Below, piece after piece: positions 6,639-8,936 of a stretch of 8,936 nt of DNA. The DNA is from Promethearchaeia archaeon (GTDB taxonomy: Archaea > Asgardarchaeota > Lokiarchaeia > Sigyniarchaeales > SOKP01). The notes under the pieces were generated by a model. The model ran no database searches. It was not told the origin of the DNA and was given only the letters and a program-made list of their open reading frames with translations. The DNA is taken from assembly GCA_046497275.1 (NCBI GenBank), contig JAWOFX010000039.1, positions 1 to 8,936 on the forward strand, written 5' to 3'. The first letter of the stretch is position 1. Every line of letters begins with the position of its first letter. Position numbers and translations under genes: made by a program.

Positions 6639-6800
6639 TAAATTATGATTTTTTCTTTATAAAATATTTTCGTTTGTCACATATAGAGCATAAAATTAAT
6701 CTCTATTATATGAAATAATTTAGATCAAAATTTTATTAATCTTAAAAACGGAACTTTATGTGTAAAGTGGTTTAACCAACTTGAGTAATAGAACAAGGAA

Positions 6801-7184
6801 CTAATCTTTATTAAGAATTTCTTTTATTTTCTTAAGTAATTCTTTTCCTGAAAAAGGTTTAGTAATATAATAATCTGCGCCTAATCTTTTTCCTTTTTGA
6901 ACATCTTCATTAAAACTTTTAACAGTAAAGAGAACGACTACTATATCTTTAAGATCATCATCGGTTTTTATTGTTTCAAGAACTTGATATCCGCTCATTC
7001 CGGGCATCATAATATCCAATAATATAAGTACTATATCATTAGATCTATCCTTAATTATCTTCATTGCTTCTTTCCCATTACTACAAGTAATAGTATTAAA
7101 ATCTCCCAATTCTAGAAACTTTTTTGTGAGATTTAATATATCCGGTTCATCATCCACAACTAAGATTGTTTCTTTGTCGGGCAT
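6801..7184 (-). CDS. Single-domain response regulator (CheY-like receiver)
   Basis: Acidic pocket VVDDE, phospho-acceptor Asp in LLDIMMP, conserved Thr in LFTV, and YITKPF. No output domain. Confidence 0.93.
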   Translation of the reverse strand: MPDKETILVVDDEPDILNLTKKFLELGDFNTITCSNGKEAMKIIKDRSNDIVLILLDIMMPGMSGYQVLETIKTDDDLKDIVVVLFTVKSFNEDVQKGKRLGADYYITKPFSGKELLKKIKEILNKD

Positions 7185-7305
7185 ATTCTTTTGATTTTTT
7201 ATCTAAGTTCTCTACTATTTTTTTAATTATATTAAAGTTAAATTCATAATATATTTAAATTTTAATTTTATTATAAGGTTTGATTTTTAGAATATTTGAT
7301 CCTAT

Positions 7306-7962
7306 ATGCCACGTAATAATTTTTTGCCTCAATTTCCTTATGACTATCTAGGTGCTAAGGCTGAAGAATATAATGAACTTCAATGGATGGAGCGAAATCA
7401 GAAAAAAACAACTCTCGAGTGTGTTGAATATCTTTTTGATCAAAAATTGGGACCTATTAATATATTGGATTTTTCAAATTATTTAATATTAGACTTAGGC
7501 TGTGGAACAGGGTTTTCGACTGAAGTTTTAATAGATCTTGGCTTTAATGTTATTTCTATTGATGTATTAATGGATATGCTGGAAAAGACTTATCATAAAA
7601 AAGAATTATTTAGTGATATGAATGTTTTAGAATTAATATTAGCAAATATGGTTAACCTTCCATTCAAACCTTCAACATTTCATTATATTATATCTGTGTC
7701 AGCATACAATTTCATTACGTATAAGAAAACAACTCAATCAGAGATAAAAAAAACCTTGGATTTTACTGCTAAATATTTAAACAAATGCCTTAAAAAAAAT
7801 GGACGGATTGTAATAGAGTTTTATCCTAATACTGATAAGGAATTAGATCTTTTTGTCTCCTCTTTCACCGCAAATAACTTTGACGGGTATTTTATAAAGA
7901 ACAATCCAAATCAAAAAGGGGGTAAAACTTTTCTACTCCTAAAGAAGGTTGATAATATATGA
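7306..7962 (+). CDS. bud23: Class I SAM-dependent methyltransferase, Bud23/WBSCR22-like (SSU rRNA m7G methyltransferase family)
   Basis: SAM motif LILDLGCGTGFS plus family-like segments along the whole length: PYDY..AEEY, NQKKT..ECVEYL, LPFKPSTF..IISVSA, IVIEFYP, and F.G....NPNQKGGKTFLLL. Confidence 0.7.
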   Translation: MPRNNFLPQFPYDYLGAKAEEYNELQWMERNQKKTTLECVEYLFDQKLGPINILDFSNYLILDLGCGTGFSTEVLIDLGFNVISIDVLMDMLEKTYHKKELFSDMNVLELILANMVNLPFKPSTFHYIISVSAYNFITYKKTTQSEIKKTLDFTAKYLNKCLKKNGRIVIEFYPNTDKELDLFVSSFTANNFDGYFIKNNPNQKGGKTFLLLKKVDNI

Positions 7963-8936
7963 CCAAATGCAGATTCTGTGGAAAAAAAGACAAATTCATC
8001 TCTAACACACTACAAATCTGTCGAGACTGTATTCTTACGGGGAATTGGAATGAGATTAAGGAACATATTTTTAGAGTTCATGCTAATGTGAGAACGAATG
8101 AAGGATTACCCGCGAATTCTCCTCATGCGAAAAAGGATGATATCGTTTTACAATGTAATTTTTGTATAAATGAATGCTCTTTATCTAAAGATCAAACCAG
8201 TTATTGTGGGCTAAGAAATTTGGAGAAAGCAAAAGATGAGGAATTACCTATTCCCAGTAAATCTGAAGGATACATTCATGGATATATTGACGCCAACCCT
8301 ACTAATTGTTGTAATGCCTGGTTTTGTCCTGCAAATACTTCAAATGGATATCCCGAATTCTCAGATTTTGATGGACCAGAATACGGAACTTATAGTTATG
8401 CCGCTTTTCTCTATGGATGTTCTTATGACTGTTTATTCTGTCAAAATGCTTCCCATAAAAATATCTCTAAATCAAAATTTTCAAGCGTTGATGATATCAT
8501 AACCCAAATTATTGAGAATGAAAAAATAACGTGTGTTTGTTTTTTTGGTGGTGATCCTGAACCTCAACTTCCCTTTACTATTAATATTGCAGAAAGAATT
8601 CTAAAAAAAGTAAAAGAAAATTCGGATAGAAAAATCCGTTTTTGCTGGGAATGGAATGGAAGCGGTAATCAAAAACTTATTGAGGAGTGTATGAAAATTG
8701 CAGTGAAAACTGGTGGAAATATAAAATTTGACTTGAAATCTTTTCATGAGAAGCTTAATTATGCTCTTTGTGGGGTAAGTAATAAAAGAACCTTGGATAA
8801 TTTCAAATTTTTAGCTGAAAATTACTTCGGAACACGAAATGGTGTACCTGAGATGAGTGGATGCACTTTATTGGTTCCAGGTTATATTAATCATGAAGAG
8901 GTCGAAAAAATTGCCAAATTTGTAAGCTTAATTGAT
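7959..8936 (+). CDS. Radical SAM protein (PFL-activating-enzyme/AmmeMemoRadiSam-like, archaeal type); 3' end runs off the window
   Basis: ATG 7959 overlaps the upstream TGA (ATGA). The frame is open for 326 codons to the window end: MTKCRFCGK...ICRDC...QCNFCINEC...YCGLR...NPTNCCNAWFCP...YGCSYDCLFCQN...FFGGDPEP...CWEWNG...IKFDLK...TLLVPGY. CxxxCxxC at 8418-8441. Confidence 0.92.
   Translation, partial: MTKCRFCGKKDKFISNTLQICRDCILTGNWNEIKEHIFRVHANVRTNEGLPANSPHAKKDDIVLQCNFCINECSLSKDQTSYCGLRNLEKAKDEELPIPSKSEGYIHGYIDANPTNCCNAWFCPANTSNGYPEFSDFDGPEYGTYSYAAFLYGCSYDCLFCQNASHKNISKSKFSSVDDIITQIIENEKITCVCFFGGDPEPQLPFTINIAERILKKVKENSDRKIRFCWEWNGSGNQKLIEECMKIAVKTGGNIKFDLKSFHEKLNYALCGVSNKRTLDNFKFLAENYFGTRNGVPEMSGCTLLVPGYINHEEVEKIAKFVSLID

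Follow-up and report, generated by a model that had tools for sequence, protein, structure and literature searches.

Does the gene at positions 7306 to 7962 of an 8,936-nucleotide contig from a Promethearchaeia archaeon (GenBank JAWOFX010000039.1) encode an archaeal counterpart of Bud23, the eukaryotic 18S rRNA (guanine-N7)-methyltransferase that is called WBSCR22 in humans, and would it act on the same site? The contig, here called the window and always meant at its full length, is contig C119 of a 3.85-Mb Lokiarchaeial metagenome-assembled genome (MAG) that is 98.9% complete; the G+C content of the window is approximately 28%. An initial annotation, made from the sequence letters, had read the gene as a Bud23/WBSCR22-like enzyme and had suggested that this lineage may carry the ancestral eukaryote-type modification of the small ribosomal subunit (SSU). 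Here, we report that the encoded protein, P0001, is by homology a member of the Bud23 family but that a second gene of the same genome is the closer relative of Bud23. We put at roughly 55% the probability that P0001 is a catalytically competent, divergent paralogue that serves as a Trm112-dependent RNA base methyltransferase and has a target unlike the canonical Bud23 site. The gene and the parts of it on which the argument turns are the following.

7306 to 7962, plus strand: gene for P0001, an NF-type Bud23-family class I S-adenosylmethionine (SAM) methyltransferase (open reading frame and translation; top sequence and fold matches are Bud23/WBSCR22).
7489 to 7512, plus strand: motif I, LDLGCGTG, amino acids 62 to 69, the SAM-binding glycine loop, with G67 equivalent to G57 of yeast Bud23 (alignment to 4qtt_B).
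7561 to 7563, plus strand: codon for D86, the acidic residue that ends strand beta2, aligned with D77 of yeast Bud23 (alignment to 4qtt_B).
7624 to 7668, plus strand: strand beta3 and the loop after it, amino acids 107 to 121, the predicted beta-zipper surface for Trm112 (complex model; the monomer model has a strand at 108 to 112).
7693 to 7713, plus strand: motif IV, SVSAYNF, amino acids 130 to 136, with N135-F136 instead of Q-W (yeast Q121-W122; joint alignment).
7816 to 7827, plus strand: EFYP, amino acids 171 to 174, with E171 instead of the Q of Bud23 QFYP (yeast Q157; joint alignment).

The open reading frame (ORF) begins with an ATG at 7306, ends with a TGA at 7960 to 7962 and encodes 218 amino acids. 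Twenty-five aligned homologues of P0001 have a mean column identity of 64% and 40 invariant columns. The nearest homologues, at 50 to 92% identity, belong to Lokiarchaeota and Promethearchaeota MAGs, and a few near homologues carry the automatic name "18S rRNA (guanine1575-N7)-methyltransferase" (JGI). A phmmer search of all Protein Data Bank (PDB) sequences matched P0001 to yeast Bud23 (4qtt_B, E value of 2.7e-16) and to the human protein (6g4w_q, 1.6e-15), and both alignments span P0001 residues 59 to 212, including the C-terminal lobe. Of the five best chains, four carry Bud23 or 18S rRNA (guanine-N7)-methyltransferase as their deposited name and one is listed as "methyltransferase-like protein," and the first chain other than Bud23, PH0226, matched at 2e-7 in the SAM core alone. 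Structure comparison gave the same result: with the AlphaFold2 model of P0001 (predicted local distance difference test score [pLDDT] of 82.5) as the Foldseek query, the top matches were eight Bud23/WBSCR22 chains with E values of 1e-16 to 1e-17 and template modeling (TM) scores, taken by target, of 0.84 to 0.88, and the next fold followed at 1e-11 with a TM score of 0.6.

Pfam reports generic methyltransferase domains alone in P0001, and the small-molecule enzyme families of the UbiE, BioC and ArsM type were considered and rejected. Every NCBIfam equivalog stayed well under its cutoff, with scores of 16 to 38 bits against cutoffs of 100 to 575; the best model scored 38 bits against 575, BioC scored 34 against 185, and the UbiE-type models scored 17 to 28 against 158 to 420. 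Moreover, a split between the Bud23 family and two generic methyltransferases of the same genome is supported at 96/95 in a tree, and the family profile matches eukaryotic proteins bearing PF12589, the basic C-terminal WBS_methylT extension, at 1e-17 to 1e-23. That extension is present in three eukaryotic representatives by Pfam; P0001 has no Pfam match to it, and, judging by motifs and alignment, the short archaeal family members that were sampled do not have it either. These results agree with the initial annotation in three respects: the five peptides it quoted all occur in the P0001 translation, and phmmer reproduces the WBSCR22/Bud23 alignment beyond the SAM motif; the basic extension is indeed absent; and the protein falls with Bud23 and not with generic UbiE/BioC-like enzymes. 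The likeness is thus real and specific and is due neither to chance nor to the SAM motif alone. We conclude that P0001, as judged by homology, is a Bud23-family member.

Membership in the family does not make the window gene the Bud23 orthologue, as a profile of the window gene's family found a second gene in the same genome, on contig C17 (E value of 1.4e-24).

C17, 3659 to 4294, minus strand (1495 to 2130 of locus L015): Bud23 homologue P0121 of type B, 211 amino acids (profile match; RPEE, SISALQW and QFYP).

P0121, which is 32% identical to P0001, carries the N-terminal RPEE block as well as SISALQW and QFYP and matches yeast Bud23 with an E value of 4.3e-26, its residues 13 to 207 aligning with Bud23 residues 3 to 199. 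When a eukaryotic Bud23 with PF12589 (P0195) was searched against this genome, the C17 gene ranked first (3.4e-21) and the window gene second (2.4e-15). Thus, the earlier assignment of the window gene as the Bud23 orthologue (K19306) did not hold, as the reciprocal best match is P0121. Because P0121 is both closer to Bud23 and reciprocally best, we take the C17 gene (type B) as the likely orthologue and the window gene (type A) as a paralogue. The QW-type copy on C17 is expected to modify the P-site guanine (G1575 in yeast, G1338 in Escherichia coli). To our knowledge, a G at the equivalent position is universally conserved, and its presence is therefore not discriminating. We conclude from these comparisons that the window gene is a divergent paralogue and not "the" prokaryotic Bud23.

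Motifs IV and VI, together with the N-terminal lid, form the walls of the substrate site in class I methyltransferases. A joint alignment was made of 22 eukaryotic, 43 clade-B (the clade to which type B belongs), 36 type A and 17 other archaeal sequences. Motif I (L-D-x-G-C-G-x-G), the ribose-binding Asp, the S-x-S of motif IV and F-Y-P are common to all clades. Residues D63, G65, G67 and G69 are invariant or nearly so in every clade, and the Asp equivalent to D86, whose yeast counterpart D77 we take to be the SAM ribose-binding residue, is kept in 86 to 100% of each clade. The presumed substrate side differs at three positions. The Q-W pair that follows S-I-S-A is present in 22 of 22 eukaryotic and 43 of 43 clade-B sequences and reads N-F in 36 of 36 type A sequences; likewise, the Q of QFYP is found in 95% of the eukaryotic and all of the clade-B sequences and is E in 36 of 36 type A sequences. 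In addition, the N-terminal helix of type A has a W-M-x-R-x-Q block, with W-M fixed in all 36, and the RPE of the lid block RPE...FY...Y...IQ is missing from the 36 aligned type A sequences. By analogy with general class I architecture, Q121, W122 and Q157 of yeast Bud23 would take part in guanine binding. The N-F pair is shared with the nearest relatives of type A, which are single-copy genes of the Asgard family that includes genome G397 and a group that includes Tara small-fraction contigs.

One way in which a changed pocket could arise is by loss of catalysis, with type A persisting as a noncatalytic ribosome assembly factor or as a decaying duplicate. The pocket changes themselves would allow it, and in yeast and human cells it is the Bud23 protein, not its methyltransferase activity, that is needed for 40S biogenesis (PMC5372719). 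However, the SAM-binding residues are kept in all clades, the changed residues are invariant in 36 of 36 sequences, and type A ORFs are intact, mostly approximately 210 to 220 amino acids long, in more than 100 genomes, so that we consider this explanation very improbable. Because the changed residues are themselves invariant, the alignment reads as a pocket re-tooled under selection and not as one in decay.

Does type A have the means to work as Bud23 does, in complex with Trm112? The initial annotation had proposed looking for Trm112 in the genome and modeling the complex, and both steps gave positive results, the second in silico. The partner gene is as follows.

C69, 108900 to 109526, plus strand (1489 to 2115 of locus L001): Trm112 homologue of 208 amino acids with a long insert (Pfam Trm112p, E value of 2.4e-10).

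The homologue has a CPxC motif near its N terminus (CPIC) and a CxxC motif near its C terminus (CNEC), the two halves of a zinc knuckle approximately 140 residues apart, and the Pfam match spans the gap. A search of 41 genomes of the order found it in each, split into two adjacent pieces in one and as a single match in the other 40. The archaeal forms described in reviews are far shorter, at 60 to 80 amino acids. We note that in most relatives the first pair reads CPxD.

A model of P0001 with this Trm112 homologue, built from family alignments of both chains, scored 0.91, compared to 0.44 for the best of three controls. Of 80 solved complexes, 58 attain that mark, as do 2 of 110 mismatched pairs; these figures apply roughly here, since the present model was built from our own alignments. 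Runs agreed in at least 98% of contacts, and the pLDDT of the partner was at least 88. The modeled interface pairs methyltransferase residue 107 and residues 109 to 121 with Trm112 residues 167 to 173 and 1 to 17, and such a beta-zipper is the described binding mode of Bud23 and Trm112 (PMC5372719). Because the Bud23-Trm112 complex has already been solved, the pass indicates likeness and is not proof of binding. We conclude from the model that type A is probably Trm112 dependent.

Gene order in related genomes indicated where type A was once located. In sister families, type B is followed by type A, either 20 to 60 nucleotides apart or with a 4-nucleotide overlap. This B-A tandem occurs at 7 of the 10 order-level loci fetched that have a type A-like gene and at 9 of 14 more distant named loci, including those of Lokiarchaeum ossiferum B35 and Promethearchaeum syntrophicum MK-D1; a radical SAM gene, such as the one that follows type A in the window, was not found near any of these tandems. 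At one locus (L034, 1628 to 2311, minus strand, and the gene upstream of it; G144, contig C491), types B and A overlap by 4 nucleotides, which suggests translational coupling of the two genes there. Of 21 type A or type B loci that were checked, 16 have the gene for ribosomal protein eS25 within approximately 0.4 to 2.2 kb, and in several, including that of L. ossiferum, it is head-to-head with type B. The genome of the window has one such gene.

L015, 2294 to 2593, plus strand: the sole eS25 gene of this genome, head-to-head with the type B gene for P0121 on C17.

In the family of the window, type A has left the eS25 locus and now adjoins a radical SAM gene.

To place the two types, a tree of 75 rows was inferred with IQ-TREE under LG+C20+F+G4 by the posterior mean site frequency (PMSF) approach. 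Four groups were recovered: the eukaryotes (100/100), an RPE/QW clade with type B (97/96), a QW clade made up of single-copy genes, DPANN-like ones among them (88/92), and an NF clade (93/86) enclosing a monophyletic type A (98/82). The backbone among these groups is poorly supported, and the archaeal clade nearest to the eukaryotes is not fixed by the tree. Recent tandem duplication of type A from the Lokiarchaeal type B was considered as the origin of the B-A tandem and rejected: type A is not nested in type B, and forcing the two into one clade cost 51.9 log-likelihood units (approximately unbiased [AU] test, P = 0.005). The branching order within both A and B tracks genome relatedness (f4 or f2, then f3, then f1, the last being the family of the window), which fits vertical inheritance of the two copies from the ancestor of the order onward. 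The type A genes of the window's family sit on a long stem branch (0.52, support of 100/100).

The distribution of the two types is uneven. When 400 Asgard genomes were searched with a type A profile, matches below 1e-40 were confined to family f1 and the rest of the order (f2 to f4); type A-like genes are found in L. ossiferum B35, P. syntrophicum MK-D1 and "Candidatus Harpocratesius repetitus," and the first two, both cultured, contain type A and type B. A clade-B profile at a threshold of 1e-25 matched 95 of 99 genomes in f1, 8 of 8 in f3, 1 of 1 in f4, 3 of 4 in f27 and 1 of 1 in f32 and gave no match in the other 23 Asgard families sampled (e.g., 0 of 58, 0 of 21 and 0 of 15 genomes at least 85% complete). 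Bud23-like genes at that threshold therefore occur in 5 of the 28 Asgard families sampled. A profile search of the whole library returned 353 clusters at 1e-10 or below. Outside Asgard archaea, the family has at least one Aenigmarchaeota member protein, and the few names that cluster look-ups gave for the other archaeal clades were those of one Aenigmarchaeota, one Promethearchaeota and one "archaeon," besides Tara small-fraction contigs. Within f1, some near-complete genomes have neither type (G170, G192 and G204, 92 to 97% complete) and others have type B only (e.g., G161, G179 and G234, 99 to 100% complete), and both genes are thus dispensable in some lineages.

Several MAGs approximately 55% identical that were labeled by their submitters as Thor-, Hod-, Hermod- or Odinarchaeota (JBHL... 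series) carry type A between the response regulator and radical SAM genes, in the synteny of the window's family. A wide spread of type A on the strength of those labels was rejected, as such strong matches were found only in the window's own family when genome taxonomy was searched, and the labels suggest loose taxonomy instead.

The proposal that this lineage carries the ancestral eukaryote-type SSU modification was not sustained, in view of the 5 of 28 families and the unsettled position of the eukaryotes in the tree. It fits the C17 gene better than the window gene and would be tentative even there. Given the patchy Asgard spread and the weak backbone, direct ancestry of eukaryotic Bud23 cannot yet be claimed.

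The immediate neighbors of the window gene raise a further question, namely, whether type A still belongs to RNA modification in this family.

7959 to 8936, plus strand: the 5' 326 codons of a Cys-rich radical SAM gene that runs off the window and whose start overlaps the methyltransferase stop (ATGA) (Pfam Radical_SAM and Fer4_12).
6801 to 7184, minus strand: a divergently oriented gene for a single-domain response regulator (CheY-like receiver; Pfam Response_reg, E value of 9e-27).

A full-length relative of the radical SAM protein has 377 amino acids (L006, 2163 to 3296, plus strand) and weakly resembles PflA/AmmeMemoRadiSam-type activases; the resemblance is too weak to assign a function. 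The radical SAM gene lies directly downstream of type A in 55 of the 64 family-level loci with room to see it. By genome, 3 of the 5 tested that have type A also have the radical SAM gene, which was not found in any of 7 family genomes without type A or in any of 3 complete sister-family genomes; in searches whose positive controls matched, it was not found in G187 or G250, in which type A is present, or in the seven f1 genomes without type A. In the genomes tested, then, the radical SAM gene is always accompanied by type A, yet type A can be present without it. We note that in some relatives, at three loci (G242, C38, 27708 to 28364; G233, C65, 752 to 1408; G247, C8, 53682 to 54341) the methyltransferase and radical SAM genes lie in one frame of approximately 590 to 600 codons with a single TGA between them, which may reflect chance phasing or read-through.

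Four metatranscriptome libraries from one salt-lake study contain contigs that match much of the window gene with 0 or 1 differences; runs sharing few sequence words were set aside. These contigs cover parts of the response regulator, methyltransferase and radical SAM genes, and one of them (7907 to 8037) bridges the methyltransferase-radical SAM junction. None covers 7225 to 7265 or 6700 to 6849, and such gaps in coverage prove nothing. The contigs are compatible with transcription, and with cotranscription of type A and the radical SAM gene, but are proof of neither. The response regulator gene is upstream of type A in 66 of 66 family-level loci (12 of the first 12), sometimes with a second copy further upstream, and has no evident link to the methyltransferase.

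A tight pairing of this kind could indicate that type A has left RNA modification and that, in partnership with the radical SAM enzyme encoded downstream, it acts as a methyltransferase of a small molecule, a cofactor or a peptide. Such a shift would account for the ATGA overlap with a Cys-rich, PflA/AmmeMemoRadiSam-like partner, for the pairing in most family-level loci, for the failure to find the radical SAM gene in any tested genome without type A and for the long stem branch of this family's type A genes. It accords poorly with the occurrence of type A without the radical SAM gene in G187, G250 and the three complete sister-family genomes, with the sister-family position of type A directly downstream of the canonical-type gene by eS25 and with the retained interface predicted for Trm112, whose known partners target parts of the translation machinery (PMC5372719, PMC6144793). 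On balance, a small-molecule, cofactor or peptide substrate seems quite unlikely.

We therefore return to type A as a Trm112-dependent RNA base methyltransferase with a target of its own. Type A keeps the Bud23 fold, the C-terminal lobe, the SAM-binding residues and the beta3 surface for Trm112, with a pocket that looks remodeled at three near-invariant positions. It would act as a heterodimer with the long-insert Trm112 homologue of the genome and would methylate an RNA base, most likely in the rRNA of the SSU head, a location suggested by its ancestral position directly downstream of the canonical-type gene beside eS25. The site or the base would differ from the P-site guanine modified by canonical Bud23. 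In the family of this genome, type A would be translationally coupled to the radical SAM gene, and from that coupling and the departure from the eS25 locus, the two products may share one pathway. An extension of this idea, distinctly tentative and rather improbable as a whole, is that Lokiarchaeales have two ancient, separately inherited, Trm112-using enzymes of the Bud23 family, of which the NF type, with a dedicated radical SAM enzyme in this family, would carry out a second RNA methylation, at another base or site of the SSU head, as part of a two-step hypermodification that has no described counterpart in any domain of life.

Several observations weigh against the explanation favored here. 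The proposed target is deduced solely from homology and gene order. The radical SAM gene adjoins type A in one family only, which inherited synteny could explain, the joint absence of type A and the radical SAM gene could stem from a single deletion, the metatranscriptome contigs may derive from contaminating DNA, and the pass of the complex model may reflect memory of solved Bud23-Trm112 complexes. The three replacements (N for Q, F for W and E for Q) are conservative in chemical terms. Finally, an NF-type gene is the sole Bud23-like gene found in G397, of another Asgard family, so that the canonical site may still be the one served by an NF pocket.

The last two observations, together with the Bud23 fold and family blocks, the presence of a Trm112 homologue and the passing complex model, are what would be expected if type A were a functional Bud23 orthologue that, with Trm112, makes 7-methylguanosine in 16S rRNA at the guanine of the P/E site, whether in redundancy with the C17 copy or as the enzyme truly responsible. 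This explanation must contend with the reciprocal best match, which is the C17 gene with RPEE, Q-W, QFYP and the eS25 neighborhood, and with an N-terminal lid block that differs, having W-M fixed and no RPE. Moreover, A and B have been retained next to each other throughout the order, and their branching orders match, a pattern that points to distinct roles. We regard a canonical activity of type A as unlikely and favor the reading of a divergent paralogue with another target.

Reviews from 2017 and 2018 state that archaea lack a Bud23 homologue and that the position equivalent to G1575 is not known to be modified there (PMC5372719, PMC6144793). In literature on Bud23 or WBSCR22 with Asgard or Loki, we found no paper naming either as an Asgard gene, the supplement of a study on the evolution of ribosome biogenesis (PMC8997704) makes no mention of Bud23, WBSCR22 or Trm112, and no Asgard ribosome structure with mapped modifications was found in the literature. 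Two Bud23-family lineages and a long-insert Trm112 in Loki-type Asgard archaea add a eukaryote-type module of ribosome biogenesis and modification to the Asgard inventory. Caution is warranted, as the window gene is the divergent copy, with an apparently re-tooled pocket and a new radical SAM partner, and should not be equated with Bud23. The question that it raises is the substrate of the second Bud23-type enzyme, and the predictions are testable because both types occur in two strains already in culture, L. ossiferum B35 and P. syntrophicum MK-D1.

Among known systems, P0001 is closest to Bud23/WBSCR22 itself (PDB 4QTT, 4QTU, 6G4W and 7WTS to 7WTW), with which it shares the class I fold and the C-terminal lobe at 26 to 28% identity. 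Common to both are motif I, the ribose-binding Asp, the S-I-S-A block, the F-Y-P block and a basic C-terminal strand, and the predicted beta3 zipper with Trm112 is the same. Unlike Bud23, P0001 is without the WBS_methylT extension and the RPE block, has N-F for Q121-W122 and E for Q157, and is not the reciprocal best match. The other Trm112-activated enzymes, namely, Trm9, Trm11, Mtq2, METTL5 and the Haloferax volcanii partners, such as Hvo_0019 (PMC6144793), have the class I fold and beta-zipper binding of Trm112 in common with P0001, and Archaeoglobus fulgidus Trm11 appears in the second tier of its fold matches. They score far lower, however (1e-11 compared to 1e-17), and are without the Bud23-specific N- and C-terminal blocks. 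Generic Methyltransf_11 enzymes (PH0226/1VE3, UbiE, BioC and the ArsM type) resemble P0001 in the SAM core alone. Type B, in this genome and in other Lokiarchaeales, belongs to the same family and length class (approximately 210 amino acids) as type A, and both extend across the order. Type B differs from type A in belonging to another clade and in keeping RPEE, Q-W, QFYP and the eS25 neighbor, whereas type A of this genome adjoins a response regulator gene and a radical SAM gene.

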